The notes: generated from the letters alone by a model not told the origin. A DNA stretch of 21,469 bases from Promethearchaeota archaeon (GCA_048938385.1 JBHLMG010000030.1:1-21469), one strand, 5' to 3'; shown: positions 1-16,494, counted from the first letter of the stretch. Program-made: numbers and translations.

Positions 1-260
1 TCAGCAACGGCACCGACAAACCCGAACGCCACAAAGCCCGCGCCCCCACCCTCGCCAACATCCCCAGCGTCATCGAACTCCTCAAAGGCGGCCACATCGC
101 CGACTTACCCATCGCGTTAGCGTCAATTGACCCTTGTTTCTCATGCACTGATAGAATAATCTTAATTGATGAGAAAGGTAATAAAGAGGTAAAGCCTTGG
201 GATTGGTTCCAGAAGGTCAGCCGCGAGACGAGAGAGAAAGAAAAAGCTTGGCGACGATAG
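1..260 (+). CDS. Group 4 (energy-converting) [NiFe]-hydrogenase large subunit, 3' part (5' end outside window)
   Basis: My translation from nt 3: SNGTDKPERHKARAPTLANIPSVIELLKGGHIADLPIALASIDPCFSCTDRIILIDEKGNKEVKPWDWFQKVSRETREKEKAWRR*. It contains the L2 motif DPCxSCxxR typical of HycE/EchE/MbhL-type subunits and a 34-aa extension after the Arg. Not in the ORF track because no start lies in the window. Confidence 0.93.
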   Translation, partial: SNGTDKPERHKARAPTLANIPSVIELLKGGHIADLPIALASIDPCFSCTDRIILIDEKGNKEVKPWDWFQKVSRETREKEKAWRR

Positions 261-283
261 CATTCCAATCAACGACTTTATTG

Positions 284-309
284 AATAGTAGATGGCATAT
301 GCTACTATT
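284..309. terminator. Hairpin between convergent genes, possible bidirectional terminator
   Basis: AATAGTAG (284-291) and CTACTATT (302-309) are perfect reverse complements with a 10-nt loop, between the stops at 260 and 334. Confidence 0.4.
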
Positions 310-333
310 AGCTTGAATTAATTTGCTTTCATA

Positions 334-2334
334 TTAGCGCTTAGATTTTTGCTGTTGGGTTAACCAGTCATTAACAGCATCTCGTTTATATCCAGAGGAG
401 GGTAGTGCGAGAGTTGCCCAGTGTTGGGTATCATCTTCTTTTTCTGTGTATATTTCCCAGATTGTGGATACTCGTCCTGTTTCGTAAATACGTATTTCTT
501 TGAAGATTTGCTTCATTTTGATTCCAAGGCTTTGTATGAGATTTTTTTCGTCTTCGAGTAGGTTACACGGATTGTTTCTGAGGATTAACATCAACTCTTT
601 GGCTAGTTGCTGATCCTTTGTTGTCTCAGCATTTGTTTTCAGTTTCTTTAGATGTCTTTTGGTTAATACAACCCGCTTTCTTGGTTGATCGGTTCGCACG
701 GTTTGGAATTGTTTCTGACCATAATGTCGGATGAATACCTTATATTGAGGTGTGATTTTTGATTGAAAGTCGTACAGGGTGGCTTTAGGTCCTGCGTCGA
801 GAACCTGGGCGCGTTTGATGCCGAATTTCATTTGTCCGTTTCTTTCGACAAAGTATCCATCTTCGGGGATTAATTCAGCTAGGTAAGCACATTTAGCTTC
901 AGGTGTGCCATATTGAAGAGTCTGTGGTAAACGGAAGTTAGGAGCAAGGTGTTTGTCGCCTTTGGGGACGCCCCAGTGTTCGAGGAGTCGACCCACGACG
1001 GCGGTGATGGTGAGGCGTTTGCGTTGGCCTTTGAGAATCTCGGTGTTGTAGTCGGCATCACCGAGTGCTCGGAAGAGAGTTCGTACATATTCAATTCGGT
1101 TGGTGTCGTTTTCATGGTAGGTTAATACGTGAGATTTTTTGTTGATGTGACAGTCGCTGAGGGCGATGGCGATGAGGCGGGCGCGAAGGTCGTTGAGTTG
1201 ATCGCCATTGGGAAATCGTGGGTTGTGTAGTCCGCCACTTTTTTCGAGGTTAGCGATGCGACCAATTTGGATGATGTGAGAGGTGATTGGGGTGAAGGGG
1301 TGGTTGGTGGCGTTGAGGAGGAGGTGGAGGGTGTCGCCGTAGAGGTAGTGGCTGTATTGGGTGGACCAGAGTTCGTAGGGGATCGCGCGGGGCTTGTAGG
1401 TGCGGTCGCGTGTATGTGTGGTGAGTTGGTCGAGGAGTTGGCCGAGTTCTTGTTTGTTGACATTGAGGTGGCGTTGGGCGGTGTCAATGAGCTGTTGTTT
1501 GAATGCGGGGGTGAGGTAGAGGAGTTCGTTCTTGTAGGCGTTGAGCCAGTGGTCGGGGTGGGTGGGTTTGCGCCAGAGGTAGAGGACGTCGTGGTCGACG
1601 GCGAGGCGGAGTTCTTCATGGGTTTGGGTGAGGTTGAGGTGGTCGGTGAGGGTGCGTTCGAGTTCAGATTTGTTTTCGCTGATCGTGCGGGCGATGGTGC
1701 GGAGAGTTTGGGGTCCGGTTTTGTGGTAGGGTTTGAGTTCGGCGACGGTGAGCCTGGTGTCGTCACGGGTGTTGCGGTAGAGGGTGCCGAGAGTGGTGGC
1801 GAGATGTTCGGGGGTGTGGCGTTTGGGGTGGTCGAGGAAGGGGTTGAAGGTAGTGTAGACAAGGGAGGGGTCGAGGAGGTGGGTTTTGGCTTCGGGTGGT
1901 AGGGCTTGTTCCCATTGTAGTCGAGCGGCTTCGTGGATGTGGAGGGTGCGTTCGAGGTGGGGTTGTTTGACCTCGAGGTGCCAGTCGCGGAGGCGTCCCC
2001 AGGGTACGCCAGTGGTGTCTTCGAGTTCTTTGTAGGTTTTTTCCGTGAGCTGTCCGTCCTCGCGGGCGGCGGTGAGGGTGCGGTGCCAAAGGGCGTTAGT
2101 ATAGGCGTGGTCGAAGGTGTCCCGGGCTTCGAGGTAGGGGTGGCGGTGGAGGTCCTGTTCGAGGCTGTGCCAGGCGGTGTAGCCGTAAGCATCGAGGAGG
2201 GCTTGCGCGTCGGGATTAGTGCCGAGGTCGGTGGGGAGGGTGTCCCAGTCCTTGATTGGGTGCCAGTCTGGTGCGTCGCTTACGAAGTCGACTTTCATTC
2301 CGTGTTGGTCCGTAGTACTGTTACCTATATACAT
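334..2334 (-). CDS. Free-standing two-motif LAGLIDADG (DOD)-like endonuclease with N-terminal HTH-like region
   Basis: 666-aa ORF. Motif-1-like RLIAIALSDCHI, block-D-like LLEHWGVPKGDK, motif-2-like LPQTLQYGTPEAKCAYLAELIPEDGYF and block-H-like LLEDEKNLIQSLGIK, in the order seen in intein-type endonucleases. No intein splicing termini. HTH-like TYKELEDTTGVPWGRLRDW. Alternative start ATG at 2298, about 28 nt after a TATA-like TATATA on the minus strand. Confidence 0.7.
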   Translation of the reverse strand: MYIGNSTTDQHGMKVDFVSDAPDWHPIKDWDTLPTDLGTNPDAQALLDAYGYTAWHSLEQDLHRHPYLEARDTFDHAYTNALWHRTLTAAREDGQLTEKTYKELEDTTGVPWGRLRDWHLEVKQPHLERTLHIHEAARLQWEQALPPEAKTHLLDPSLVYTTFNPFLDHPKRHTPEHLATTLGTLYRNTRDDTRLTVAELKPYHKTGPQTLRTIARTISENKSELERTLTDHLNLTQTHEELRLAVDHDVLYLWRKPTHPDHWLNAYKNELLYLTPAFKQQLIDTAQRHLNVNKQELGQLLDQLTTHTRDRTYKPRAIPYELWSTQYSHYLYGDTLHLLLNATNHPFTPITSHIIQIGRIANLEKSGGLHNPRFPNGDQLNDLRARLIAIALSDCHINKKSHVLTYHENDTNRIEYVRTLFRALGDADYNTEILKGQRKRLTITAVVGRLLEHWGVPKGDKHLAPNFRLPQTLQYGTPEAKCAYLAELIPEDGYFVERNGQMKFGIKRAQVLDAGPKATLYDFQSKITPQYKVFIRHYGQKQFQTVRTDQPRKRVVLTKRHLKKLKTNAETTKDQQLAKELMLILRNNPCNLLEDEKNLIQSLGIKMKQIFKEIRIYETGRVSTIWEIYTEKEDDTQHWATLALPSSGYKRDAVNDWLTQQQKSKR

Positions 2335-2352
2335 AGAGGGAGCAGGTGGAAA

Positions 2353-2424
2353 GTGAAGGCGTGGGCATGATTTGAGGTGAAGAGCCGGGAAGCGCGGGAC
2401 CGCGTGAAGGCGTGGCGTCGCTAG
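2353..2424 (+). pseudogene. Displaced copy R1 of hydrogenase large subunit 3' tail
   Basis: Translates VKAWA*FEVKSREARDRVKAWRR*, collinear with VKPWDWFQKVSRETREKEKAWRR* of the gene at 1-260. TGA replaces a Trp codon. Confidence 0.9.
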
Positions 2425-2594
2425 TCTAGAAGACTTGTTGATCCTAGTTCTTGCTGTCTTGTAGTGGTCTTGATCTTCGAGTGGGTTGTGAGTGCGTCCT
2501 GCTTGTGTAGCGTTTCGTTGGTTTCTTGGAGACTGGTATCGTTGGATTTAAGGGGTATGAGTTGGTAGGGGTAGGGTTGGAAGGGGTGTGGTCG

Positions 2595-4556
2595 TTGAAC
2601 CGTCGATGGATTGTTTCTTGTGGTCTCCTGTGTGTTTTAGGGGTGGTAGTCAGTGCTGGTATGAGTTATCCGATCCCTACTCAGGCCCAAGCCCCCTTTT
2701 TTTCCATGGCACTGGGGGCTGATGACGACACTCCGAATAGGGTTTGGTGGACAGAAATCATAGCTGATGCGTGGCGACGACTAAACATTGATGCTACTCC
2801 CTACTTTGGCCCTTGGAGTTATTGGATTCCACGAGTGTTAGAACCCACATCAGACAGCATCGGGAAACCCCATGCTGAAGGCGGATATGATGTCTTCTTC
2901 CTTGGAGGGAGGTTGAGTCGGATCACGGATCCGACCAGCTTTTTCCATAGTGATGCCATGGTCCCAGCGGGATATAACTATCCACTTTGGAATGACTCGG
3001 TCAACGATGCGCTGATTGATGCGATTATTACCGAACCAAATGTTACGGCGCGAAACTTGTTGCTCTTCCAATGGCAGCAACATTTCCAGGAGGAAAGCCC
3101 CAAAGCGATTCTCTTCTACCCTAAGGAGGCCTGGGCGTATACCCCCTCGATGCGCAACTTCGAGTCCTTCCCCTACACTTTCCCAAATACAGGAGATCCG
3201 GGGATCCGCATGGATACTCCGACACTAAAAATCGGGACTAACTTCATTCCTTTTGACTTCAATCCAATTCTCGCTGGAACGGATAAGTGGTCCTCACACC
3301 AGGATCGGCTCGCTATCAACCCCTGCTTTGATGCCCTCTACTACTATAACAGCAGTACGGATTTCTTCAACTTTGTGCGCACTCCATGTCTCACCACGCA
3401 GGACTATGAAGTTTCATCTGATGGGCGGAACTGGACCATCCACCTGCGCGATGATGTCTACTGGCCCACAGGTTTCCGGTTCAACGCGAGCGATCTCGCC
3501 ATGACATATCATGCCTGTCTTATCCCTGCCTTCCAAGATAGGAATTCTGGGGAAGTACGACATTATGACGAGTTTGTAGAAACGGGTTTGACCAACGAGA
3601 GCATCGTCGTCGTGGACGAGTTCACGGTCACCGTGACATTCCCCACCCCCTATGCGTGGGCCGCATCCTTGCTGAACATCCAGCCCCTCTCCTGGGTTGC
3701 CATGAAAGACATACCTTGGACCAGCTGGACCACTCATGGCTCCAATACTGGGATCCAGTGGACAACAACCGATATCAACGGGGAGCCCTATGCAGTCTTT
3801 GGCTGTTTGGGAGTGGGACCGTATGTGGTGCATGATATTGGCAGTGGATGGAACGCCACGATGGGAACCTTCCGAGCAGATCTTCGTGATCCCATGGGGA
3901 GTAAGGGGGCGTTAGCCAATGGAACCATTATTTCCTATCATAATGGGGTGAGGGGGTTTGGCAGTGAGCCTATGCCAGCTATTTACGAAGTTCAACAATT
4001 TTTCAGTTTAGATGCTGCTATTGACGCCTTGGAGTCTGGTCAGGTTGATCTCATTGACTCCCAGTTCATGATCCAATCCAAGTTGGGATTAATCGACCCC
4101 GCTTGGGGAAAAATTCTCGTGGGGATGGCGTTAAAACTCCAAGAAGTTGGGTTTAACATGCAGCATCCAATCTTTGGCACTGGTGAAGCTACTCCCAACG
4201 GACAAGCAGATCCCGCTAACGCAGCGTTGTATGCCAAGTATGTTAGGCAAGCACTGAATTACATGATTCCCCGGGGACAAATCATCGAACAACGACTGAC
4301 AGGATTTGCTGAACTTGGTGTGACCTTCGTTTCACCGTTAACATCGGCGTATTCGCCTGCGATCCACCAGTATATGTATAATGAGGCTGCGGCGTGGGAA
4401 TGTATGGAGCTGGCTGGATATGTTCGCCCTCCTGGGTGCCCGTACTATCCTTGTCCAGAAGCCATAATCCTGTTATTGGGAGTCGTAGTGATTATTCAGG
4501 TCGGCCTATTGGCAGTTCTCCTGTGGCGTAATTACAGCCGTCAAGTCCAAAAATAA
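2595..4556 (+). CDS. ABC transporter solute-binding protein, family 5 (OppA/DppA-like), circularly permuted, with C-terminal membrane anchor
   Basis: SBP5 motifs YEVSSDGRNWTIHLRDDVYWPTGFRFNASDL and VRQALNYMIPRGQII...ELAGY. Signal-peptide-like N-terminus from TTG 2595 (GGGGTG upstream; the ORF track starts at 2526). C-terminal TM helix plus basic tail. Confidence 0.85.
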   Translation: MNRRWIVSCGLLCVLGVVVSAGMSYPIPTQAQAPFFSMALGADDDTPNRVWWTEIIADAWRRLNIDATPYFGPWSYWIPRVLEPTSDSIGKPHAEGGYDVFFLGGRLSRITDPTSFFHSDAMVPAGYNYPLWNDSVNDALIDAIITEPNVTARNLLLFQWQQHFQEESPKAILFYPKEAWAYTPSMRNFESFPYTFPNTGDPGIRMDTPTLKIGTNFIPFDFNPILAGTDKWSSHQDRLAINPCFDALYYYNSSTDFFNFVRTPCLTTQDYEVSSDGRNWTIHLRDDVYWPTGFRFNASDLAMTYHACLIPAFQDRNSGEVRHYDEFVETGLTNESIVVVDEFTVTVTFPTPYAWAASLLNIQPLSWVAMKDIPWTSWTTHGSNTGIQWTTTDINGEPYAVFGCLGVGPYVVHDIGSGWNATMGTFRADLRDPMGSKGALANGTIISYHNGVRGFGSEPMPAIYEVQQFFSLDAAIDALESGQVDLIDSQFMIQSKLGLIDPAWGKILVGMALKLQEVGFNMQHPIFGTGEATPNGQADPANAALYAKYVRQALNYMIPRGQIIEQRLTGFAELGVTFVSPLTSAYSPAIHQYMYNEAAAWECMELAGYVRPPGCPYYPCPEAIILLLGVVVIIQVGLLAVLLWRNYSRQVQK

Positions 4557-4588
4557 CTTCGATTCATACCCCGAACCCTTATTCAAAG

Positions 4589-4716
4589 CCTTGTTTTCAT
4601 GCACAGACCGAGTCATCCTAGCGTATCCGGATGGACATCGGGAAGAAAAACCTTGGGCGTGGTTCCTGCAGAAGAGTCGGGAAGAGCGGGACCGCGTGAA
4701 GGCGTGGCGCCGATGA
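4589..4716 (+). pseudogene. Displaced copy R2 of hydrogenase large subunit 3' tail
   Basis: CCTTGT (PC), a 1-nt deletion, then FSCTDRVILAYPDGHREEKPWAWFLQKSREERDRVKAWRR*. 24/40 aa identical, ungapped, to the last 40 aa of the gene at 1-260. Confidence 0.95.
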
Positions 4717-4864
4717 TCATTAGGTTTCCATAGGGAGTAGGGTAGATGACCGCTCCAATCGTCCTCCACATATCCCATGCTAGTTTGCCACCTTTTTGAT
4801 GTATTAAGGATTTATGTGGCTGGTGTTGCCCATGGGCAATTGGTGGCCCCTTAGGGAGGGGATG

Positions 4865-4930
4865 AAAAGTTGTCAGTAACAGGTTAATTTTTATAGGGCG
4901 GTGTTTTAAAAGTTGTCAATAACGGGTTAA
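4865..4930 (+). promoter_or_regulatory. Two 23-bp direct repeats flanking a TATA box; probable operator of the downstream HTH gene
   Basis: AAAAGTTGTCAGTAACAGGTTAA (4865-4887) and AAAAGTTGTCAATAACGGGTTAA (4908-4930), 21/23 identical, with TTTTTATA at 4888-4895 between them. Confidence 0.7.
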
Positions 4931-4946
4931 CTTGAAGGGATTCGGA

Positions 4947-5426
4947 TTGTTCACTAATTTTCGGTATCCGACGGCGCAGCAAGGATGGATCTGGCTGAAA
5001 CGTCGTCAGCGCGTCCGTCCATCTGAGATTGCCGAGGAATTGCAGGTGTCGCGGCCTTTTGTGAGTAAAACCCAGCAGCGAGCGGAAGCCAAGATTAAAA
5101 AGCTCTTGGAGCATGCGGCGGCGATTAATCGTATTGAGGTACAGTGCTTGAATCCGCGGTTTGGCATCGTTGTGGGCTACTGTGCCGCGACCCAGACCGT
5201 GACCTATATTACATATTCTCCACAGCTAGGGGTGCAAACATGGTTCACCCATCAAGGAGACTGTGGAACTTGTGCGCAACGCGTAGAGTGTGAAGTGATG
5301 TTGCAGCAGTTGGCTGCCGAATGGAAAATCGTTCTTCCTGATAAGCAGCGTCCTACGGAATTAGCACTTCATTTATTCAAGACAATTGAAAAACAACTTA
5401 ATCTGCCGGAGGTGAAACCTCGGTGA
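4947..5426 (+). CDS. HTH transcriptional regulator with C-terminal His/Cys metal-binding motif
   Basis: HTH RPSEIAEELQVSRPFVSKT; C-terminal HQGDCGTCAQRVEC (HxxxCxxCx5C). Start at TTG 4947 or 4932. Confidence 0.75.
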   Translation: MFTNFRYPTAQQGWIWLKRRQRVRPSEIAEELQVSRPFVSKTQQRAEAKIKKLLEHAAAINRIEVQCLNPRFGIVVGYCAATQTVTYITYSPQLGVQTWFTHQGDCGTCAQRVECEVMLQQLAAEWKIVLPDKQRPTELALHLFKTIEKQLNLPEVKPR

Positions 5427-6430
5427 GTGCAAAACAGAATAAGAAAGCCCGGATCTGTCCTATCCCACCGAAACCGCGAATATCGCCGCCCAGCGTAGTG
5501 AAGGTGGATGCTCGCCTTCGGTGGCACCTCAATCCCTTTCTGTTAAAGAAAGTGGGCGCAATCCTCATCTTCTTTGGTGCGGTTCTTATTTTTGTAGCAC
5601 AAGTATGGATTAGTGCGATTTGTGCTCAATTTGTCTCCATCTTAGGGTTTGACCTGATTCTTGCAAGGAATATAGTAAATCCGATGATAGTTGCGATGAG
5701 TTTTGGAATCCTTTCCGGATCGATGGTTCTCATCGGTGCAATCTTGATGTATTTTAAGAACGTGAAAATTGGAACATCGTTGGCCATCTTTTGGGCTTTA
5801 CTGGCCAATCTAATGCTCGCATTGATCTTACTTTTACGCACAGAAATTCATGAGTATGTGTTCTACATTCCCTTCTGGCAAACATTTGCCCCAGGTATTA
5901 TCGGTTCTATTGTTGGCGTCTTAGGAGGGCGTATAGGCTTGGCATCGCTTCGAACGCCACAAGCAATTTCACCCGAAGGAGTAGTTAAAACGAGCCAACT
6001 TAGAACAGCAGGTTGGGCGTTAAGTCTTCTCGGGGCAGGAATAATCGTGTTTATCCAATTGCTGCTACTGTTCTGGTACCTGGAAAATACCATCTTCAAT
6101 CCATTTTACCCATACGGGATGGATAGCTTCGCATTATCCAATCTGTCAATTATAAAAATCGGTATTTTCGTTACGCTTATCGGCGGCATCGGATTACTTT
6201 CAACCCTACTCATCATTAGTAATCTATACGCCAAACTGGGCGATGTCTTAGTCTTCATTTTTACTATACCCGCCATCTTACCATTCTATTGGGGTACAAT
6301 TCAACCCCTTCTCTTCATTCTCATACAAGGCACCGGTGCGGGATTAGCCATAGGAGGCAGTATACTCAGCCTTTCTGCAGCTCTCTATTTACATAAAATC
6401 CCACAAGCACAACCCATAGTTAATCCTTGA
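5423..6430 (+). CDS. Multi-pass membrane protein (about 8 TM) with internal duplication
   Basis: 335 aa, hydrophobic. The two halves begin LKKVGAILIFFGAVLIFVAQ and LRTAGWALSLLGAGIIVFIQ. GTGA start/stop overlap with the HTH gene. Confidence 0.75.
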   Translation: MSAKQNKKARICPIPPKPRISPPSVVKVDARLRWHLNPFLLKKVGAILIFFGAVLIFVAQVWISAICAQFVSILGFDLILARNIVNPMIVAMSFGILSGSMVLIGAILMYFKNVKIGTSLAIFWALLANLMLALILLLRTEIHEYVFYIPFWQTFAPGIIGSIVGVLGGRIGLASLRTPQAISPEGVVKTSQLRTAGWALSLLGAGIIVFIQLLLLFWYLENTIFNPFYPYGMDSFALSNLSIIKIGIFVTLIGGIGLLSTLLIISNLYAKLGDVLVFIFTIPAILPFYWGTIQPLLFILIQGTGAGLAIGGSILSLSAALYLHKIPQAQPIVNP

Positions 6431-6461
6431 GAATTTAAAATTAGAAACATTGAACACCTAG

Positions 6462-6542
6462 AAACAGGAGGTGCGTCTGTGGGTGTGGTTCGGGCAGAAG
6501 AGCCGGGAAGAACGCAAATGTGTAACGGTCTGGCAGCGTTAA
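6462..6542 (+). pseudogene. Displaced copy R3 of hydrogenase large subunit 3' tail
   Basis: Translates KQEVRLWVWFGQKSREERKCVTVWQR*, collinear with NKEVKPWDWFQKVSRETREKEKAWRR* and with R2. Confidence 0.85.
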
Positions 6543-6802
6543 ACCGTCGTAATCTATTAAATGAAAGTAGTAGCTGTAGGTTTCCTTGCAAGAAGTGGGG
6601 TGCTGAATTCGCTTTCATGCAGGGAAGTTGTATGCTTCAAAGTTGAAGGAGTGGATGATGAAACAGGCCACTGCTCGTATTTTCTAGAAAGCATGGGAAG
6701 GTTTTGTGCTGGCTGGGTAGTTTCCTTAAGGGATGAGGGAAATATCTGCTAGGAAGGTGAATGATTCAATCGGTTTAGTGTCTGAAGTAGTTGGTGATTA
6801 GA

Positions 6803-7783
6803 ATGAAGTTATGTGTTCACATCGAACCGCATGCGGGATATTCTTATGAGGATATTGTGATGCTAGCTAAGGCGGCCGATGATGCCGGTTTCTACCGGTT
6901 CTCGGTTTCGGATCATTTCTTTGGGTATCCAAAAGGGACAGAGCTTCCGTGCTATGAGGCGTGGACCACCATCGCATTGCTTACTCCACAGACTGAACGG
7001 ATCATGCTGGGTACTCAGGTGACATCGCAGTCTTATCGGAATCCCGCGCTTCTGGCGAAAATTGTGGCAAATCTGGATAATGCATCCAATGGAAGAATGG
7101 ATTTGGGCATTGGCGCGGGATGGAAAGCGGCAGAATACGAGGCGTATGGGTATTCGTTTCCGTCGTCGAAGACGAGGATATTACAGCTTCGAGAGGCACT
7201 GCAAATAATCAAGCTCCTGTGGACAGAAGAGCGACCGAGCTTTGTGGGTAAGTTTTACCGTATTAGAGACGCGATGTTTCTGCCAAAACCGATACAGAAG
7301 CCGAGAGTGCCAATTTGGATTGGGATGTTGGCGTTGGATGCGCCCATGATGGAAGAGACTGCAGCGAGGTATGGGGATGGAGTGGATTATGGGGGGACAC
7401 TGACGGAATACGCTCAAAAAATGGAGCATGTTGAAGTGGCATGCGAGAAAGTCGGACGGGATTTTCAAGAGATTCGATGGTCAGTTGGTGTAATTGCGGT
7501 GGTGATCGGTGAAGATGAAGAGGATTATGAACAGAAGAAACAGGATGTGCTCAAGCAAGAGTGGACTCAGAAAATCCTAGATGAATCAATGAAAGCGAAG
7601 TGGTTAGATGCGGCGGTTGTCAAAGAGATCGCAGGACCACCAGAGTTGGTGATTGAGAAGCTCTCCAAGTACAAAGACAAAGTGGAGTTAGTGAATATTT
7701 GTTTGCCATTCGTGGGAGACCTGCGCGAGAATGGATTAGAGACCATCAGGATTCTGAAAGAGCGAATTGCTCCAAAATTATGA
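6803..7783 (+). CDS. Luciferase-like monooxygenase (LLM) family, probable F420-dependent oxidoreductase
   Basis: Motifs SDHF, EAWTT, YRNPALLAK, GRMDLGIGAGW, PKPIQKPRVPIWIG. ATG at 6803 follows GGTGA (the ORF track starts at 6791). Confidence 0.88.
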   Translation: MKLCVHIEPHAGYSYEDIVMLAKAADDAGFYRFSVSDHFFGYPKGTELPCYEAWTTIALLTPQTERIMLGTQVTSQSYRNPALLAKIVANLDNASNGRMDLGIGAGWKAAEYEAYGYSFPSSKTRILQLREALQIIKLLWTEERPSFVGKFYRIRDAMFLPKPIQKPRVPIWIGMLALDAPMMEETAARYGDGVDYGGTLTEYAQKMEHVEVACEKVGRDFQEIRWSVGVIAVVIGEDEEDYEQKKQDVLKQEWTQKILDESMKAKWLDAAVVKEIAGPPELVIEKLSKYKDKVELVNICLPFVGDLRENGLETIRILKERIAPKL

Positions 7784-7837
7784 TTTCAAGCATCATTAGC
7801 GCCGGAGCGCGAACAACGGAAGACATGGCGACGGTAA
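7781..7837 (+). pseudogene. Displaced copy R4 of hydrogenase large subunit 3' tail (short, degenerate)
   Basis: *FQASLAPEREQRKTWRR* has the same codon count as WFQKVSRETREKEKAWRR*. The clearest part is 7805-7837, EREQRKTWRR*. Confidence 0.7.
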
Positions 7838-7956
7838 TTCGCTTGTAATCTTCTGCGTGAGAGTACTGTTTCGGAATTGCATCGTATTTGGTAGTGTGAG
7901 TGCTAGTATTTGCGAAAGGCAATTAGTGATATGTCGCAAGAACAGAATTGATTGAC

Positions 7957-8358
7957 ATGAAGAATACAAGAAAACTAACCGAAGAGCAATGGAAGAAAAA
8001 GCTCTCCAAACAAGAATACCATGTATTGCGAGAGAAGGGAACCGAACGGCCGTTTACGGGGAAATATTGGAAGCATAAAGAGAAGGGGACTTACAAGTGT
8101 GCAGGGTGTGGGGTTGAGCTCTTTGCGTCGGACACGAAATTCGAGTCGAGTTGTGGGTGGCCGAGTTTTTATGCGGCGCTCGATAAGGATAAAATTGAGG
8201 AGAAACTCGATCTATCGCATGGGATGCGGCGAATCGAAGTGTTGTGCAAGAACTGTGGTGGGCATCTGGGACATGTGTTTGATGATGGGCCGAGAGAGAA
8301 AACGGGGTTACGCTACTGTATCAATTCCGTCGCGCTCGATTTTAAAAAGGATGAGTAG
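7957..8358 (+). CDS. msrB: Peptide methionine-R-sulfoxide reductase MsrB
   Basis: [10 protein letters not shown], two CxxC Zn ligand pairs (CAGC, CKNC), [16 protein letters not shown] and catalytic RYCINS. Confidence 0.96.
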
Positions 8359-8438
8359 TGCTGTTCTTTTGTATACCTCACGAAGCGAATGACAGGGGTT
8401 TTACACCGTAGGATTTTATGAAAAGGAGGATATTTGGA

Positions 8439-8570
8439 AATTCCTGTTGTAGTTGCACTGCCCTGATGATCGTCGCTTATCGTGATGGGAAGCGGGAAGA
8501 GCCGCCCTGTTTGTGTTTCCAACAGAAGAACCGGGAACAGCGCGAACAGCTGAAGGTGTGGCGTCGGTAG
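8439..8570 (+). pseudogene. Displaced copy R5 of hydrogenase large subunit 3' tail
   Basis: Translates NSCCSCTALMIVAYRDGKREEPPCLCFQQKNREQREQLKVWRR*. 22/40 aa identical, ungapped, to R2; NSCCSCT aligns to DPCFSCT. Confidence 0.9.
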
Positions 8571-8705
8571 CGGTGTTTAAGGGGACGGCACAATGCGTGT
8601 TTTGGAGGCTTTCTGAAATGAGTGGAACGAGGTAGATATCATTTCAGCCTTCAGGATAGGATGTGTTCTCGATTACTTTGAGGAGGAGGCGAGTTTGGTT
8701 GTGGG

Positions 8706-9677
8706 CTATTTCTCGGGGAGGAGTGTCAAGAGAACCTCGAATGATTCTAGCTCCGGTTGGAGGGTGGCGAGGCTAGTGGCGAGGGGAACTTCGGTTCGGA
8801 AGGGGAAGGAGACGCGGAGAGGGATCTTAGCCCATCCAGCGGCTTGGGCTTCTTGTGCGATGGCGATGAGAAGGTATTGCCAGGCGTGCTGGTAGCCCGG
8901 GCGAATGGCAGTGAAGCGCATGATGATGCGTTCGTCGTCGCCAAGGAGAAATTGTTGATCAGGTTGGATGCGGAGAGCGGCGCTCGCGGCTACAGCTTGA
9001 TCGTTGTCGAAGATGAGGACAGCGTGATTGTCTTTAAGGACGCGATCTGTGAAGTACTGTTTCCAGGCCTCTTCTGTAGGGAATGCTTGGCGAATATAGG
9101 TATCTGCTTGGACGAGTTCGATTAAGAGGGCGAGATCGTTTAAAGTGGCTTTCCGACTCGTGAAGGCACTCTTACTTTTAGATTCTTGCCAGCTGCTGAC
9201 CTCGGTGATATCATAGTCGCGGTTATAGCGGTAAACCCGTTCTCGTTCGACAAAGCCTTTGGTCTTGAAGAACGCGAGTTGTTGATCAGCGATTTTGCTG
9301 GTCAGGACCACGGCGGTGCGGATTTCGCGAGTTGTTTCACGCGATTTGAGGTATGTGAGCATGTCGTTGAAAAGGCGGGTTTGGACTTCTGTGGGGGCGT
9401 TGGGCATGGTCCAGGGGTAGCCGATGTTGCTGCGTCCAATGTCAGTGTCAGAATCATACGCAGTGATATAGCCTAGGGGGTCACCCGTTTCGGTGAGGGC
9501 GTAGCGGGTCATTTCAGCGCCGCGGTTTATGTTGCGTTGTTCAATTTCTTCGGCGCGTGCGGGAAGCCCGGAGGCGGTGGTGTAGATTGTTGCTTGGAGT
9601 TCGCCTAAGCCTTTATTGGGTTCGAAGGTTTGATATTTAATTTTCAAAATGGTTCTAACTCCATGAGAACGACTCAA
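8706..9677 (-). CDS. Probable tandem GNAT-fold protein
   Basis: Two similar halves with GNAT-like order (GYITAY...IGYPW...FFKTKGF; SRKATLNDLALLIELV...IIMRFTAIRPGYQ). The true start may be TTG at 9647, after GGAG. Confidence 0.55.
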   Translation of the reverse strand: MSRSHGVRTILKIKYQTFEPNKGLGELQATIYTTASGLPARAEEIEQRNINRGAEMTRYALTETGDPLGYITAYDSDTDIGRSNIGYPWTMPNAPTEVQTRLFNDMLTYLKSRETTREIRTAVVLTSKIADQQLAFFKTKGFVERERVYRYNRDYDITEVSSWQESKSKSAFTSRKATLNDLALLIELVQADTYIRQAFPTEEAWKQYFTDRVLKDNHAVLIFDNDQAVAASAALRIQPDQQFLLGDDERIIMRFTAIRPGYQHAWQYLLIAIAQEAQAAGWAKIPLRVSFPFRTEVPLATSLATLQPELESFEVLLTLLPEK

Positions 9678-9810
9678 TTGTTCTCATATTTTGCGAATAT
9701 AATATCATCTAATGTCTTATAATTATTGCTATGTGAGAACAGTAAATAACTCAGGGCGCATGCAACACATAGGGACCAGGCGCGCCATTCAACACAAGTT
9801 AATGAGCTCT

Positions 9811-10878
9811 TTATCCAAGGGCTACATCCGGCAAGTGATTGGTGAGGTATTCATAGTCCTGCCGAGTTTTAACGAAAACCCTAAGGTTGCCGAGCCGAAG
9901 ATTGACGAGGCCCTGTTGTTGCATGGCCTGAGCGCTTTCAACCATTTCGTGAATAGTAGGCGGTCGTACCTGTGAGAGTTTGTAAGAGGGGAAGAAGGCG
10001 AGAAGAGTAGTGGGAATGGTTGGATCGGTATCAGCGACTAGTTGGGCTATGGTGGTGTGTTGATCGGTTTCCACCCATTTCGGAATGTAGAGGGTGAGGA
10101 TTTCCAACACGAAGCCGGCTTCGTAGCTGAGTGCAATGGCGTCTAAGACCGTCTGGTTGGAGGTGCCACAGAGTTTCTTATAGATTTTAGGATCAGAGGC
10201 TTTGATGTCAAGCCAGAAGGCATCCACACCGCCGTCCTTCAGGAGGGTCAAGTTGTGTGAGGTGAGAGCGTAGCCATTGGTTTCGAAAAGGACCCACATA
10301 TCGTTGCCGGCGACCTCTTTGATAGCGCGGGCCGCTTCAGCGTAGTATTCGGGACGACACCCCAAATCTCCTCCCGTAAAAGCGATGATATTACGGGCGG
10401 GCCCATAGCCTTGGACGGATAGCGTTACTTGCGTGGAATCGAGGTTCTGGGGGCATTGGGGTGAGGGGAGGCCAGATAGCCGGCAGGATCCACAATGTCG
10501 GCAGAGGGTGCCGGCGTGCCACATGGTAGCCCGTTTTCGGGGCTCCCACACGGTTACTTCTTGTCGATAGTCTTTAGCGATGAGGGCTAGGTCAGTGGTG
10601 GAGATCCACTCGCCATTCGCGGTTTTGCTAAACGCCGCAGAATGGCATTTCAAACATGTATGATTGCAGCCGCTCTGGTATACTGAGAAGTAGTCCTCGG
10701 GTCGGCTAAGATGCATCGAGCGGATAAGCCGTTCGAAGACGCCTTGCTCGCTTTTTCGGAGGGTGACCTGGCAAGCTGGTTGCAATTGGCCATCATGGGT
10801 TCGGGTTAGGCAGGCTCCGCGCTCAAGTCCTTGCCCTTTGAGTGGGCATTTCATACCACATAGAGTATACAGCTCCAA
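9811..10878 (-). CDS. Radical SAM protein, PFL-activating-enzyme-like
   Basis: CNHTCLKC (CxxxCxxC), FTGGD, ETNG, WLDIKA; additional Cys clusters. Confidence 0.88.
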   Translation of the reverse strand: MELYTLCGMKCPLKGQGLERGACLTRTHDGQLQPACQVTLRKSEQGVFERLIRSMHLSRPEDYFSVYQSGCNHTCLKCHSAAFSKTANGEWISTTDLALIAKDYRQEVTVWEPRKRATMWHAGTLCRHCGSCRLSGLPSPQCPQNLDSTQVTLSVQGYGPARNIIAFTGGDLGCRPEYYAEAARAIKEVAGNDMWVLFETNGYALTSHNLTLLKDGGVDAFWLDIKASDPKIYKKLCGTSNQTVLDAIALSYEAGFVLEILTLYIPKWVETDQHTTIAQLVADTDPTIPTTLLAFFPSYKLSQVRPPTIHEMVESAQAMQQQGLVNLRLGNLRVFVKTRQDYEYLTNHLPDVALG

Positions 10879-10942
10879 GGTTTTTGGATGCTACGCTGTG
10901 ATGTAATTTCAGAATCGGAAGAGGGGAGTGTTTGCTGGTTTT

Positions 10943-11464
10943 TTAGTAGCGTCTGTACTTATGGTAGTTAGGATCATAGATGCGAGTGGAATCAAGGGGA
11001 CCTGCTGTACTGGAATGAGTGCGGGTTAAGTATTCGTAGAGGAAGGTAGGTTTGCCTGCGAGTTTGAGGCGTTCGAGGTTGGTGGCAATGACGCTACTGT
11101 GATTGACCCAGATGATGAGGGCTTCGTCGCAGGCGTCGATCATGCCTTTTTCTCGTTCGGTCACATTGTCTCCGTATTGAGTGGTGGTCCAGTTGCCGGC
11201 GTTGTAGCGGATGCTGCGGGCGTGTCCCACGATCACCTTCTGGTAGCCTTTAGAGCATAGGTAGTCTTGGAAGGCGCGGTTGGCACCGGGCGCTTCTCCG
11301 ACCAGGATCGTCCACTGTTTGGTAAGGGCGCTATCGAGTTGGGCTTTCACCTCAGGGGGTAACTCTTTATCCCCGAAGGCTTTGCTCCCCATGCAAAGCA
11401 GGGTTTTACCACGGGACATCGCAGTATTCTCTCTTGGTAACTTGCTACACTGTTCTCGTTCCAT
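10943..11464 (-). CDS. Hypothetical protein, SLOG-superfamily-like Rossmannoid fold
   Basis: Pattern GSK...ILVGEAPGANRAFQDYL...EKGMIDACDEALIIW...GKP resembles SLOG/DprA-like small proteins. Alternative start at 11419. Confidence 0.5.
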   Translation of the reverse strand: MEREQCSKLPRENTAMSRGKTLLCMGSKAFGDKELPPEVKAQLDSALTKQWTILVGEAPGANRAFQDYLCSKGYQKVIVGHARSIRYNAGNWTTTQYGDNVTEREKGMIDACDEALIIWVNHSSVIATNLERLKLAGKPTFLYEYLTRTHSSTAGPLDSTRIYDPNYHKYRRY

Positions 11465-11498
11465 CCCTCAAAAGGACTTGCATCTCTGTTTGGGAAGG

Positions 11499-11543
11499 AA
11501 AAAATACAGGAAAAAGAGGGGGAGAGGACGCGCAAGGCGTCCT
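11499..11543 (-). terminator. Stem-loop plus pyrimidine/U tract terminator
   Basis: AGGACGC/GCGTCCT 7-bp stem (11525-11543) just after the stop at 11548, followed on the minus strand by CTCCCCCTCTTTTTCCTGTATTTTTT. Confidence 0.65.
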
Positions 11544-11547
11544 TCAG

Positions 11548-14283
11548 CTAGGAATTATGGTGTTTTCTGCGACGAGTGATCAAGCCTAATCCCACAGCAA
11601 TGATAGCGCCGAGGGCAATGGCTTCGATGGGGAAGCCGGGAATCGGTGGAAGGGGCAGGGTAACAGTGATAGCTTCATCGTTACTCCAGGGACCCGCTTC
11701 ACCGTCGTCGTCTACGGCGCGCACTCGGAAGTGGTAGGTACCATCTGTAAATCCACTGATAGCTTGGGTGGTGGATGTGGGGGTCCAAGTGTCTAAGATC
11801 GTGGTAAAGGTGGCGGAGTCGCTTACTTGAAGCTCGTAGTGGTCGATGGAGCCATCGTCGGTGCTGGTACTCCAGGACACATCGAAGGCGCCGTCATCAT
11901 CACTGTCACCAGGATCAGTAAGAACGGGCGCTGTGGGGAGGTCGTTGTATTCGTAGATGATGTTGACATCGTAGAGGTGGACACTGCGATCATCGACTGG
12001 TGTGGCAAGAATTGCCCGCCAGCGTAGGTCGTTGCCAGTGTTGGTGAAGCTGTGTTCTACTCCTGGTGTCACTGGTTCCCAGTGGACGCCACCGTCGGCG
12101 GAGAGCTCGAAGTTAAGCGTGGTGCCTGGTGCTAGGTAGACGGTGTGGGTGAGTGTAGCGTTCTCGATGAGGCGATCCGTTGTGTCAACTTCTAGGGACA
12201 CGGCTTGACATGGACCAGGTACATAGGTGGCAGCAGCGCTTCGGAAGAGCCGTAAGATCACAAGAGATGACCGGTTGGCTACATAGGCGTAGTCACCGTG
12301 TACGGTGACATGGGTTGCCGCGGTTGCCGCAGCATATGTGACGAGGACATTGACATCGTAGACATTGGTGGCATTTACGATGCGGACGCCGCCGCTACCA
12401 CGAGCGCTGACTATGTAGGGTCCAAAGCCCCATACACCCCTGGAGGGGTCAGTAGTAGAATAGATGGTATCAGGATAGCTGATGCTGGTGGGGTCGGTGA
12501 CATTACGCACGGATAACCAGTCTTCGTTGGCACAGTAGGCAAAATCACCGTCAACGAAGATGTCCCAATGATAGCTCTGGAGGGCATATGAACCGAGAAG
12601 GTTGGGATTGCTGATATCGGTGATGTCATAGATCCTAAAGCCTGTGCCGACACCGTTGAGGTCTTCGACGATGTAGAGGTTAGGGCCTTGAACCCACAGA
12701 GCTGTCATGTTGGTGGCAATGCCGGCCCAGTTGAAGATGATACCAATGTTATAGGGGTCGGAGATATTGAGCGCGCCAAAGCCCGTGGTGAAGGTGTAGA
12801 ATACCACCTCGCCATGCATGAAGACATCGATACAACCACCGGCTACGGCAGTATCTGTTATTTTGATATTGCTGGGATCAAGGACATCGATGAGGTAGAA
12901 GGTTCCACCTCCTGCATATGAGAAACAACTGGCAAGGTGTCCTTGTACATCCAACTTGACAACATTTACAGCACCGGGATCGTATTGATCCAGGAGCACT
13001 GGATTGCTTGGATCGCTGACATCGAGGGTGAGGAAACCATCGGGTCCCGCGGCTACATATGCAACATCACCCTGGACTCGCACATCCCACGCTTCAAAAG
13101 CGAGGTAGGTGCCGATTAGGGGTAATGCGGCGAGGTTATAGCCAATTCGGAGGGTGTAAACTCCTGTATTGGTGGCAACAACAACATCGCCACCATACAG
13201 ATCTACATCGTAGGTGTAGGGTAAAATGGCACGGTCTACATATGTCGGATGGGTGGGGTCTGCGACATCCAGGATTACGAGGCCGTTAGTGCCATCTGCT
13301 ACGAAGAGGGTGTGTCCTTGCAAGGCTAAGTTGCGAGCGTTACCCGCGGTGTCGTAACTACCGATGATCGTGGGACTATTTGGGTCACTGACATCCACGA
13401 CTTGAACGCCACTAGGGCCATCAGCGACATAGGCGATGGTCCCATCGACGAGGACCGAGGTGGCGTTGCCAGGCGTGTTCACGGATCCTTGGATGAAAGG
13501 GCTATAGGGATCGGAGACATTGGAAATCTTTAAGCCATAGGTACTGTGCGCTAGGTAAGCCAGCTGGCCAACGACATGGAAGTCCAAAAGTTGTGCATAC
13601 GCCCAGGAGTGGACTTGGTGGATGTCGTACGGGTCTTCCACATCGTAGATGAGGAATCGTCCATTAAGCTCTTTAGCCGCGACATAGAGGAAATGGCCTT
13701 GCACATCCAGCCCTACTGGAATTCCTCCAATGTCATAGACATAATCAGCCGGTGATGGAATTGTATAGGGATCACTGACATTGTAGAGAAAGAGGTCACC
13801 ATCTCCATCGTTGCTCATGTCACAGCCAACATAAAGGATGTCACCTTCCACCTGAAGATCATAGGCGTAGACGGGTGCGTCCCTATATGCGAATTGGGCG
13901 ATGTTATTGGGATCTGAGATGTTTAAAATATAAAGAACTGGTAAACTAAATCCTGTTTCGTAGACGCAGATGTAGGCTTTGCGTCCTTGGACATCGACAG
14001 AGCGGACAGGTTTGGGAGTGGCAAAGTAGTCAAGAGACTGGATGTTGTAGGTGCGAGGATTCGTGATAGCACCATTTCCCCAACCGTCAGCATTCGTAGC
14101 ACCCAAGTCTTGGTAAGTAGTGGTGGTGAAGTCTTCAAAGTAACTGTCAACCCCGGGTGGAGGAGCAAGCTGAGTTGTCACTGAGTTCGATGTTGTAATT
14201 GAGGGAGCGTAAGTAAAGGTTGCAAGCGGAAGTAGAGTTAGGAAAAATAATACAAATACGATATTCAATTTTTTCAGAAACAT
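11548..14283 (-). CDS. Cell-surface LVIVD-repeat (beta-propeller) protein with Fn3 domain and PGF-type C-terminal sorting signal
   Basis: Signal peptide; many repeats like AYVADGPSGVQVVDVSDPNSP; Fn3-like VSWS...YELQ...YHFRVRAVD; C-terminal IPGF + TM + RRRK. GGAGG upstream of the ATG. Confidence 0.88.
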   Translation of the reverse strand: MFLKKLNIVFVLFFLTLLPLATFTYAPSITTSNSVTTQLAPPPGVDSYFEDFTTTTYQDLGATNADGWGNGAITNPRTYNIQSLDYFATPKPVRSVDVQGRKAYICVYETGFSLPVLYILNISDPNNIAQFAYRDAPVYAYDLQVEGDILYVGCDMSNDGDGDLFLYNVSDPYTIPSPADYVYDIGGIPVGLDVQGHFLYVAAKELNGRFLIYDVEDPYDIHQVHSWAYAQLLDFHVVGQLAYLAHSTYGLKISNVSDPYSPFIQGSVNTPGNATSVLVDGTIAYVADGPSGVQVVDVSDPNSPTIIGSYDTAGNARNLALQGHTLFVADGTNGLVILDVADPTHPTYVDRAILPYTYDVDLYGGDVVVATNTGVYTLRIGYNLAALPLIGTYLAFEAWDVRVQGDVAYVAAGPDGFLTLDVSDPSNPVLLDQYDPGAVNVVKLDVQGHLASCFSYAGGGTFYLIDVLDPSNIKITDTAVAGGCIDVFMHGEVVFYTFTTGFGALNISDPYNIGIIFNWAGIATNMTALWVQGPNLYIVEDLNGVGTGFRIYDITDISNPNLLGSYALQSYHWDIFVDGDFAYCANEDWLSVRNVTDPTSISYPDTIYSTTDPSRGVWGFGPYIVSARGSGGVRIVNATNVYDVNVLVTYAAATAATHVTVHGDYAYVANRSSLVILRLFRSAAATYVPGPCQAVSLEVDTTDRLIENATLTHTVYLAPGTTLNFELSADGGVHWEPVTPGVEHSFTNTGNDLRWRAILATPVDDRSVHLYDVNIIYEYNDLPTAPVLTDPGDSDDDGAFDVSWSTSTDDGSIDHYELQVSDSATFTTILDTWTPTSTTQAISGFTDGTYHFRVRAVDDDGEAGPWSNDEAITVTLPLPPIPGFPIEAIALGAIIAVGLGLITRRRKHHNS

Positions 14284-14408
14284 GTTACCTTCCTCCCTGA
14301 GGAAGTTACACTACTAAGAGGGCTTCAAATACTTAAATTAACAACAGCAGGGGAAATGTTCCTGGATTATGAATGGTGAGAAGTGAGGGGGTGTGATGTC
14401 TGGTGTGG

Positions 14409-14729
14409 TTAGTCTGGAAAGACTCCAGGAGGGCGTAGTGAGTGGATTACGGGTATGAGAAAGACAATGATGACACCCAAGAGGACAAAGGATAGTCCTC
14501 CGTACACGAAGTACAAACCAAGGGGACTGAAAGGCTTGTAGCGTTCAACGAGTCCGCAAAACACCCAGAAGAAAACCCCGATAGCTGTACAAAGAAGCCC
14601 AGCTATGACTGCTAGGAGACCGAAGCTAGTGAGTGTATTTCCAATGAAAATGTTTACGAGTAGTAGAACAGGAAGTAGAAGGCCAAACACGACAAGGCTC
14701 GCGATTCGAAAAGCCCTTACATACATCAA
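14409..14729 (-). CDS. Small 3-TM membrane protein
   Basis: 106 aa with three hydrophobic segments; fills the gap co-directionally with its neighbours. Confidence 0.6.
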   Translation of the reverse strand: MMYVRAFRIASLVVFGLLLPVLLLVNIFIGNTLTSFGLLAVIAGLLCTAIGVFFWVFCGLVERYKPFSPLGLYFVYGGLSFVLLGVIIVFLIPVIHSLRPPGVFPD

Positions 14730-16080: not shown

Positions 16081-16098
16081 GGAGTGTGAAAAACGAAT

Positions 16099-16494
16099 AT
16101 GCCACGAATTGGAGCAATGGAAGGCGAAATCCTCAAGACTGTCCTCAGTCGGAAGACTGCCACCATCCGCTACCCCTTTCAACCAGCAGTTCGCCCTGAA
16201 CGATTTCGCGGAAAAATCGAACACGACATCGAAAAATGCACTGGCTGCGGGCTTTGCAGCCGTGACTGTCCTGCCACTGCTATCACAATGGTCGAATCCA
16301 CAAAAACCAAAACACAAAAGAAGCCTGAATTCCGCTTCGACCGCTGTATTTTCTGTGGCACCTGTGAAGCGGTTTGCCCGAAAAAGGCGATTACGATGTC
16401 GACGGTCTTTGAGATGGCGTCCTTTGATTTGCAGGATCCAAACCTAATTGTGGTGTCAGAGGATCCTGAGCCCGCTGAAAAGGCTGAGGAGTAA
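16099..16494 (+). CDS. NuoI/HycF/EchF-like 2x[4Fe-4S] ferredoxin subunit
   Basis: TIRYPF...RFRG, CTGCGLCSRDCP, CIFCGTCEAVCP; 18 bp after the NuoH-like gene. Confidence 0.93.
   Translation: MPRIGAMEGEILKTVLSRKTATIRYPFQPAVRPERFRGKIEHDIEKCTGCGLCSRDCPATAITMVESTKTKTQKKPEFRFDRCIFCGTCEAVCPKKAITMSTVFEMASFDLQDPNLIVVSEDPEPAEKAEE

Follow-up and report, generated by a model that had tools for sequence, protein, structure and literature searches.

Hypervariable array of gene cassettes behind a group-4 [NiFe]-hydrogenase gene in Hermodarchaeota, with a LAGLIDADG homing-endonuclease-like gene in its first slot

A stretch of 21,469 nucleotides (nt) from a Promethearchaeota archaeon (GCA_048938385.1, JBHLMG010000030.1:1-21469) was analyzed and is referred to here as the window; it constitutes the entire 21.5-kb contig C45 of a genome of 2.48 Mb in 51 contigs that is 90% complete. 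The window begins inside the gene for the large subunit of a group-4 [NiFe]-hydrogenase, and a hypervariable array of gene cassettes is anchored on the 3' end of that gene (Table 1). One live tail and five displaced tail copies (R1 to R5) punctuate the array, each comprising at most 131 nt of the hydrogenase 3' end, and the first cassette encodes a protein named c4. The window also encodes TBP and Cdc48, which identify it as archaeal, and the named relatives with an orthologous hydrogenase gene (83-86% protein identity) belong to Candidatus Hermodarchaeota (Asgard), including Ca. Hermodarchaeum yapensis.

Table 1. Features of the hydrogenase-anchored array and its right flank; positions are counted from the first letter of the window.
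Feature	Position	Strand	Basis
Hydrogenase 3' end, cut by the contig start	3..260	+	PF00346 match
Live tail: PCFSCTDR nickel-binding codons and C-terminal extension of 34 amino acids (aa)	130-260	+	
Cassette 1: c4, protein of 654-666 aa	334..2334	-	double-LAGLIDADG fold in the AF2 model
R1, 5'-decayed tail remnant directly upstream of the c4 start codon	2321..2424	+	nhmmer
Cassette 2: family-5 extracellular solute-binding protein	2526..4556	+	PF00496; weak NikA/Opp-like NCBIfam matches
R2, full-length remnant beginning at the Cys-motif codons	4587..4716	+	nhmmer
Cassette 3: helix-turn-helix (HTH)-like protein, 164 aa (4932-5426), and unknown protein, 335 aa (5423-6430)	4932..6430	+	weak HTH matches
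R3, tail remnant	6462..6542	+	nhmmer
Cassette 4: luciferase-like monooxygenase	6791..7783	+	PF00296, E 1.9e-49
R4, short tail remnant preceding msrB	7779..7837	+	nhmmer
Cassette 5: methionine sulfoxide reductase B (msrB)	7948..8358	+	PF01641, E 4.7e-55
R5, full-length remnant with decayed Cys motif	8439..8570	+	nhmmer
Last variable block	8706..14729	-	
Conserved right flank: NuoH-like membrane subunit and NuoI-like 2x[4Fe-4S] subunit	14896..16494	+	PF00146, Fer4, synteny

A profile built from the tail copies was run with nhmmer against the whole genome and returned exactly six matches, all on the + strand of the window contig, with E-values of 1.5e-33 (R2), 5.2e-32 (R5), 1.7e-27 (live tail), 3.7e-14 (R3), 3.9e-14 (R1), and 2.5e-5 (R4). 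The same six were recovered as a direct-repeat family, so that direct repeats of a target 3' end, as known from integrative elements, are present at this locus. Because these are the only six copies in the genome and all sit on one strand of one contig, a dispersed miniature inverted-repeat transposable element (MITE) or repetitive extragenic palindrome (REP) was ruled out. A cassette array confined to this gene end had been proposed in a sequence-only reading of the window, made by a model without database searches, and the proposal held: all six elements lie where that reading had placed them, their translations were reproduced letter for letter, and the gaps between cargo genes and remnants, given as 0-80 bp, were measured as 0-81 nt. 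Two extents were revised. R1, placed at 2353-2424, is present and was detected from 2321 onward with a longer profile, and the array, which had been traced to 8570, belongs to a variable region that reaches approximately 14.8 kb.

The window is a whole short contig beginning inside a gene, its GC content (0.50) differs from that of the genome (0.46), and strain variants were seen to co-occur in run X2, all of which would fit an assembly or binning that had mixed strains with different tails. However, the identical array lies within a 444.5-kb contig of assembly GCA_048886565.1 (100% identity over 12,298 nt, the entire array covered), and Logan contigs from a public run cover 1303-7308 and 7279-12000 and bridge all repeats, although both may derive from the same sample as the window. 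The architecture is also repeated in 12 other genomes. The strain-chimeric assembly against which the sequence-only reading had warned was therefore not found, and the likelihood of such an artefact appears negligible. The array system accounts for the breaking of assemblies of these genomes at such loci.

Forty relatives were searched for the orthologous gene and for matches to the tail only, and the regions were then retrieved. Twelve other Hermodarchaeota genomes, from two genera, together carry approximately 34 remnants downstream of their orthologous gene, with zero to at least four per locus. At seven outgroup loci from Atabeyarchaeum, Bathyarchaeia, and Methanomicrobiales, the tail of the live gene was present and no remnant occurred within 10 kb. 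The interval from the hydrogenase gene to the NuoH-like/NuoI-like flank was hypervariable; the flank itself, with additional genes beyond it, was present in most genomes, and its gene order was unchanged in most relatives. For example, the interval in genome G002 holds only the hydrogenase gene, its tail, and msrB, and other genomes carry different cassettes in a different order, such as c18, a flavodoxin (c17), c19, c24, c26, and msrB. Across the arrays, the cargo included a solute-binding protein, a luciferase-like monooxygenase, MsrB, flavodoxin, CorA, a proteasome-like subunit, an F420 oxidoreductase, a phospholipase D-like protein (PLD), radical SAM, and peptidase C45, and cassettes occurred in both orientations. 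The last variable block of the window comprises genes for two unknown proteins (323 and 173 aa), a radical SAM protein, and an LVIVD/fn3 surface protein of 911 aa, together with an open reading frame (ORF) of 106 aa; pieces of this block were also found downstream of a remnant in G011, G014, and G007. Cassette content that is variable and reorderable between relatives, as in integrons, is thus a feature of these loci.

Differences were also observed between close strains. In contigs of a 95-99% identical strain from two other studies, one of them of a mangrove, R3 is joined at 6502 to R5 at 8531. The joint is exactly in register, with 7 nt shared and 2,028 bp lost, including the luciferase-like monooxygenase, R4, and msrB; c4 was not covered by these contigs. 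In a contig of run X5, the hydrogenase body continues without insertion or deletion into a tail that is R2-like over its final 61 nt and is followed by unrelated DNA, while coverage in runs X3 and X4 was too thin to read. Hence the arrangement is not fixed, as the sequence-only reading had anticipated: cassette order differs between species and cassette content between close strains.

The comparison of cassettes with their host genes indicated movement between species. The c18 cassettes of G001 and G008 share 95% identity and the hydrogenase genes 85%, while those of G008 and G012 share 71% and the hydrogenase genes 87%; cassettes therefore move between species. Moreover, cassette genes of the relatives are present in the host genome as single-copy genes elsewhere. 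The flavodoxin, for example, is a single-copy gene inside the array in G003, G008, and G012, lies at C34:7986-8456 in the host genome, and is found on another contig in G014. Detectable homology between these locations extends beyond the ORF by approximately 16 nt on one side and approximately 35 nt on the opposite side and takes in a TATA-like box. No hidden arrays were found around the sites of cargo orthologues on contigs C34, C25, C6, and C36 of the host genome, and the arrays therefore relocate ordinary genes.

The remnants are former live tails that were displaced after a period as coding sequence. Averaged over the remnants, identity to the consensus of each alignment column was 0.80, 0.85, and 0.64 at the first, second, and third codon position, compared with 0.85, 0.91, and 0.66 in live tails, and since codon periodicity was kept, the diversity of the remnants arose while they were coding; several now contain stops or frameshifts. 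The remnants of the window share 52-63% identity with the resident live tail and 65-87% with live tails of other species. For R2, identity amounts to 87% with the G013 live tail and to 63% with the resident one, and R2-type tails are live both in G013 and in the close strain. Similarly, the end of R4 (CGGTAA followed by ATTC) and the region upstream of msrB recur before msrB elsewhere, and this tail is the live one in G002, where it is followed by the same cargo. That the remnants had once been live, and that relatives would be found with remnant-type live tails, were both suggestions of the sequence-only reading. The live genes are themselves mosaic at approximately nt 1070 of 1206, which coincides with the 5' boundary of the remnants: G000 and G014 share 86% identity in the gene body and 57% in the tail, and G000 and G006 share 80% and 85-93%, respectively.

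That boundary was mapped with a profile made from the final 400 nt of live genes. None of the approximately 34 remnants extends beyond about 131-137 nt upstream of the stop, and at least 12 start at (C)CTGYTTYTCNTGYAC, the Pro-Cys codons of the DPCxxC motif; the repeated stretch thus spans the coding sequence from the first Cys codon of this motif to the stop codon. Homology-facilitated illegitimate recombination, an analogue named in the sequence-only reading, leaves this single fixed boundary unexplained.

The full large-subunit gene (401 aa) was recovered from the 444-kb contig and contains the motifs RICGICS and DPCFSCTDR, the latter followed by the 34-aa extension; it matches PF00346 (1.4e-57) and PF00374 (1.9e-17), is NuoD-like, and has the features of a group-4 [NiFe]-hydrogenase. 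In the maturation of [NiFe]-hydrogenases, the peptide following the DPCxxCxxH/R motif is cleaved off by a HycI-type protease after nickel insertion, and a gene for a HycI-family maturation protease was found in the genome. Because the peptide after the motif is removed in maturation, the repeated segment probably represents a dispensable part of the protein, and a tail that encodes a protease-removed extension should tolerate swaps of its alleles. In the region that precedes the large-subunit gene (L036, 13690-14549), no recognizable small-subunit (NuoB-like) or NuoC-like gene was present; its two ORFs of 130 and 153 aa had no Pfam match apart from one marginal hit to TMEM43 (E 0.0085) below the cut-off of that family. 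Past the array, at a distance of 14.6 kb downstream of the large-subunit gene, the genes of the NuoH-like and NuoI-like subunits follow.

Crossovers were mapped at approximately 135, 40, and 6 nt before the stop, and this spread along the tail fits homologous recombination rather than a single-site recombinase. An integron-like system, in which a recombinase encoded elsewhere (XerA or an unknown one) acts on a short core sequence (TGGCGNCGNTAR) within the conserved 3' terminus of the tail, could draw on the final 12 nt or so, which are the best conserved stretch of the remnants, and on the synteny of G001 and G008, which breaks within 6 nt of the tail end. However, the conservation of the 3' end follows codon positions (W-R-R-stop) and is equal in live tails, the other crossovers lie about 40 and 135 nt upstream, and cassettes occur in both orientations. 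In addition, the six tails, unlike an attC site, showed no more folding than shuffled sequence did (z between -0.93 and +0.23); the tails matched no Rfam family, and no tRNA was found nearby, so that a structured RNA or attC-like site was ruled out. No window protein matched PF00589, and hence no IntI-type gene heads the array, while a search of the genome for PF00589, PF16795, and PF00239 yielded only one XerA-like gene (PF00589), on contig C26. An integron-like recombinase acting in trans is thus quite improbable.

The protein encoded in the first slot is of a different kind. The c4 gene is convergent with the hydrogenase gene, the two stop codons being 73 nt apart. At the sequence level, c4 had no match in Pfam at E<=0.01, its profile had none among PDB sequences, and the only match in NCBIfam was a weak one to the intein-containing tetraether lipid synthase Tes (model positions 372-488, E 0.0019). 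An AlphaFold model based on 21 homologues (predicted local distance difference test score, pLDDT, 87; predicted template modeling score, pTM, 0.80) consists of a helical region at residues 1-370 and a double-LAGLIDADG fold at approximately 377-660. The top Foldseek matches were all LAGLIDADG homing endonucleases, with E-values down to 6.6e-6, and alignment with VIA-align gave Z-scores of 14-16 and root-mean-square deviations of 2.1-2.9 A over 160-187 residues with the endonuclease domain of the TliVMA intein, PI-PfuI, I-Tsp061I, and I-DmoI, nearly all of I-DmoI and I-Tsp061I being covered. Two motifs, LIAIALSD(C/G) and LAEVIPEDG, carry an acidic residue in 20 of the 21 aligned sequences: at SD394(C/G) it is D in 20 of 21, and at ED492G every one of the 20 sequences without a gap has D or E; the single exception has K at 394 and is gapped at 492. 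Based on the modeled fold and the motifs, c4 can be assigned with confidence as a LAGLIDADG homing-endonuclease-like protein. The N-terminal domain (residues 25-372), when folded alone (pLDDT 84), resembled only weak HTH-like or winged-helix-like pieces in the PDB (best Z 5.7), with no catalytic fold among its structural matches. The sequence-only reading had recognized no recombinase in the window; this stands for tyrosine and serine recombinases and transposases as judged by Pfam, while the LAGLIDADG homing-endonuclease-like protein in slot 1 had escaped it.

The c4 family is rare, with 17 members among 5.8 billion proteins, and essentially restricted to the array-bearing family, where it was found in 15 of 18 genomes, in multiple copies, as fragments, and often at contig ends. 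In seven genomes c4 occupies slot 1 at the hydrogenase locus. The layout of live tail, c4, and displaced tail was also observed in G003, G011, and G012, and at the group-3 hydrogenase of G008. At the hydrogenase locus, the pairwise identities of c4 orthologues track those of the hydrogenase body. Therefore c4 is an old resident, and the array is no simple chronological stack. Displaced units consisting of a full-length tail and a degenerate c4 were found in G016 and G007, which indicates that pushing in the downstream direction does also occur.

These observations bear on the possibility of serial insertion, in which small integrative elements, each a tail with its cargo, entered at the 3' end by means of an integrase that was lost or acted in trans. 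Such insertion would fit the tail that travels with msrB and is the live tail in G002, the tails of the R2 type that are live in G013 and the close strain, the displaced units of tail and c4 in G016 and G007, and the fixed 5' boundary of the remnants. However, a Pfam scan of the cargo in the arrays of 13 genomes revealed no integrase or transposase, and neither a tyrosine nor a serine recombinase; the sole PF00589 gene of the genome is XerA-like and on another contig, with no integrase of the SSV type or resolvase. Additionally, slot 1 is ancient instead of holding the newest arrival, internal cassettes come and go, and the cargo consists of single-copy host genes relocated from elsewhere. The linkage of tail to cargo is also weak: mean identity was 75% for tails followed by the same cargo, 70% for tails preceded by the same cargo, and 68% for background pairs, which is too small a difference to fix the polarity of a cassette. 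Serial insertion is therefore improbable. The same results do not sustain two elements of the sequence-only reading, namely a chronological stack and the arrival of each new tail together with its cargo, since c4 is an old resident, internal cassettes are lost through in-register joints, the order differs between genomes, and linkage hardly exceeds background. Its comparison with integrons was right in spirit, but wrong on the missing mobility enzyme and on strict chronology.

The search for similar remnants at other core genes, a check proposed in the sequence-only reading, was made by genome self-comparison followed by profiles and yielded two more arrays. A second array in the same genome (C5:47450-61124; L047 covers 52000-61124 of C5) contains six minus-strand tails of the large subunit of a group-3 [NiFe]-hydrogenase (...NHLGETTQVIQNF.. 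and stop) and reaches the contig end. Genes for a proteasome alpha-like subunit and for a small GTPase of the Arf/Roc type are among its cargo, and the proteasome-like gene shares 66% identity with a cassette of the group-4 array of G003. A third array (C12:27953-47338; L048, 30000-47786) consists of fourteen minus-strand copies of the 3' end of actin, whose gene is broken by a contig break, with the N-terminal half at C15:6-584. Since arrays also occur behind a group-3 hydrogenase and actin, the system is lineage-wide and not peculiar to one gene. In G012 (contig C68, L050), slot 1 of the actin locus holds one or two ORFs at 1987-3560 (+), of 147 and 377 aa, convergent with actin at 3623-4714 (-). 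An 'IRLAMSAEGSI' stretch in this slot, with the motif seen in the 377-aa ORF, is LAGLIDADG-like by eye only; there was no Pfam match and no significant similarity to the c4 profile (probability 0.2%). A repeat family at C24:86000-102500 (L046) was rejected as a tail array, as it represents the shared C-termini of three tandem giant paralogues of approximately 1311-1390, 1512, and 2169 aa.

Paralogues of c4 at other loci were likewise associated with duplicated gene ends. In G008, a paralogue is accompanied by a duplicated end of the group-3 [NiFe]-hydrogenase gene, and the remnant again begins at the CxxC motif. Elsewhere, paralogues were found with a duplicated end of a GlcD-like FAD oxidase gene and with a three-copy tail array in G018. 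In G004 (contig C119, L043), a c4 paralogue and three passenger ORFs separate the live uvrB gene from a displaced fragment of its 5' end (5419-5703 and 9997-10285), so that the c4 family can also duplicate 5' ends and carry passengers. A mobile homing-endonuclease gene behaves in this way when it brings along a substitute end for its host gene, as is on record for atp6 and cob of fungal mitochondria (PMC6279837).

On balance, we lean somewhat towards an origin in which tail duplication was seeded by a homing endonuclease and recombination between tails then enlarged and shuffled the cassette array. The free-standing c4 gene would have invaded the hydrogenase gene at its conserved Cys-motif codons and supplied a replacement tail of its own, while the old tail stayed behind as a remnant. 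The multiple tails would then recombine with one another, within and between genomes, possibly stimulated by endonuclease cuts, and cassettes and the live tail would thereby be inserted, deleted, reordered, or replaced, the outcomes recorded in the joints, mosaics, and interspecies differences described above. Ordinary chromosomal genes are in fact found as compact, self-promoted cassettes between tails, as the flavodoxin exemplifies. We infer for c4 a nuclease activity and its target, and for the arrays a route of cargo capture.

Several observations weigh against such an origin. WhiA was among the structural matches of c4, and LAGLIDADG folds can be non-catalytic. G008, G013, and G001 lack c4 at the hydrogenase locus yet possess arrays there; in the host genome c4 is single-copy, and the group-3 hydrogenase and actin arrays are without a c4 homologue. 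The DNA of the Cys motif shows no obvious immunity difference between genomes with and without c4, being the same in G008 and G012. The remnants that adjoin c4 (R1 type) are shortened ones and not those with the sharp boundary. Lastly, the placement of endonuclease-free cargo between two tails is left without explanation by the model.

An alternative is a recombination hot spot only, in which the tails were duplicated once by any means and were then exchanged through homologous recombination and horizontal transfer, with c4 as a further passenger, selfish or domesticated, that occupies slot 1 by chance. Crossovers at several positions along the tail, the persistence of arrays in genomes and at loci without c4, the old and vertically inherited c4 of the hydrogenase locus, and the missing immunity signature at the presumed target all fit this alternative. 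Yet c4 paralogues at four other loci (three host genes identified) are each flanked by a duplicated host-gene end, two different hydrogenase genes have the CxxC motif in common as the point from which the duplication starts, c4 and the arrays have the same narrow taxonomic range, and a convergent LAGLIDADG-like gene (by motif only) also heads the actin array in G012. A hot spot with c4 as passenger is accordingly regarded as unlikely, though more probable than the other alternatives.

No published description of tail-punctuated arrays or of the c4 protein family was found in the literature. Aloposons and other described mobile elements of Asgard archaea are unrelated, being giant-gene elements with tRNA targets. 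The seeding by c4 proposed here has its closest counterpart in fungal mitochondria. A comparable case of a homing endonuclease is that of atp6 in Allomyces. In Endoconidiophora resinifera, free-standing homing-endonuclease genes lie behind partial C-terminal duplications of mitochondrial atp6 and cob (PMC6279837). As in the fungal type, a LAGLIDADG-type gene is located in the window between the working 3' end of an energy gene and a displaced copy, and the invader would supply the replacement end, so that the host gene stays intact. The fungal type involves a single duplication in organelle DNA, with the space filled by endonuclease ORFs, whereas the arrays described here have up to at least five remnants with ordinary cellular genes between them, are shuffled between species, reside on an archaeal chromosome, and involve at least three host genes.

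Similarities to other systems are partial. Integrons have been described in archaea (PMC9668308), and chromosomal integrons and clusters of attC sites lacking integrases (CALIN) share with the present arrays cassettes of one or two genes, a repeated site, a fixed platform, strain-variable content, and differing orders. Unlike integrons, the present arrays lack both IntI and attC hairpins. Their repeated site is a copy of the end of a protein-coding gene, their cassettes face either way and have promoters of their own, and crossovers are located at more than one point. Islands at the 3' ends of tRNA and tmRNA genes, such as the ssrA islands of Dehalococcoides and the tycheposons of Prochlorococcus, depend on tyrosine integrases, RNA genes, and short identical cores. 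They resemble the present arrays in that displaced copies of the target 3' end flank cargo modules, some of which lack an integrase; here, in contrast, the tail is a protein-coding one of 131 nt, its alleles are diverged, and no integrase is present. In T4-like phages, free-standing endonucleases carry out intronless homing (PMC2988022), with the endonuclease gene beside a conserved gene and co-conversion of flanks that yields mosaic host genes; however, the flanking sequence is replaced and not displaced, and neither remnant arrays nor accumulated cargo result. The C-terminal displacement cassettes of the polymorphic toxins Rhs and CdiA (PMC3482391) are similar in that a new 3' end is recombined onto a conserved body and old ends remain downstream as orphans. 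In those toxins the variable end is itself the payload, together with its immunity gene, whereas here it is a dispensable maturation peptide and the payload consists of unrelated genes.

More tentatively, and with rather less confidence than in the seeding of the hydrogenase array, the loci may be instances of a general gene-capture platform of Hermodarchaeota, which would combine, at several loci, a conserved host gene with a slot-1 homing endonuclease and with copies of the gene's own dispensable end as recombination sites. Such a platform would relocate ordinary chromosomal genes into exchangeable cassettes behind two hydrogenases and actin, and would be a functional analogue of integrons made from entirely different parts in a eukaryote-related archaeal lineage. 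If homing endonucleases can seed and drive multi-gene arrays, they would contribute constructively to genome plasticity in addition to spreading selfishly, and integron-like gene shuffling would have a route that needs no integrase. The system belongs to Asgard archaea, whose ways of exchanging genes are relevant to models of eukaryogenesis, and the genes concerned, hydrogenases and actin, are core genes. The c4 family would also offer a set of natural long-target nucleases, of predicted activity, with identifiable candidate sites.

Additional observations were made on c4 and its family. The c4 gene (window 1000-2500) has a GC content of 0.54-0.61 and a GC skew of up to +0.53 on the + strand, compared with the genome GC of 0.46, and its protein has a high content of His, Thr, Leu, and Arg. 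An ORF cut by a contig start at C11:1-765 (-) (L049) weakly resembles the N-terminal domain of c4 (E 0.0036) and, on this similarity, may be a second, divergent family member broken by assembly. In the sister genus, three c4 paralogues adjoin a gene of approximately 1020 aa (L045, 2576-5647; L040, 3294-6359; L037, 2940-6023), of which the L045 copy matches HerA/DUF87-type ATPases and the L040 copy has no Pfam match. This gene is a possible accessory partner of the c4 endonuclease family.

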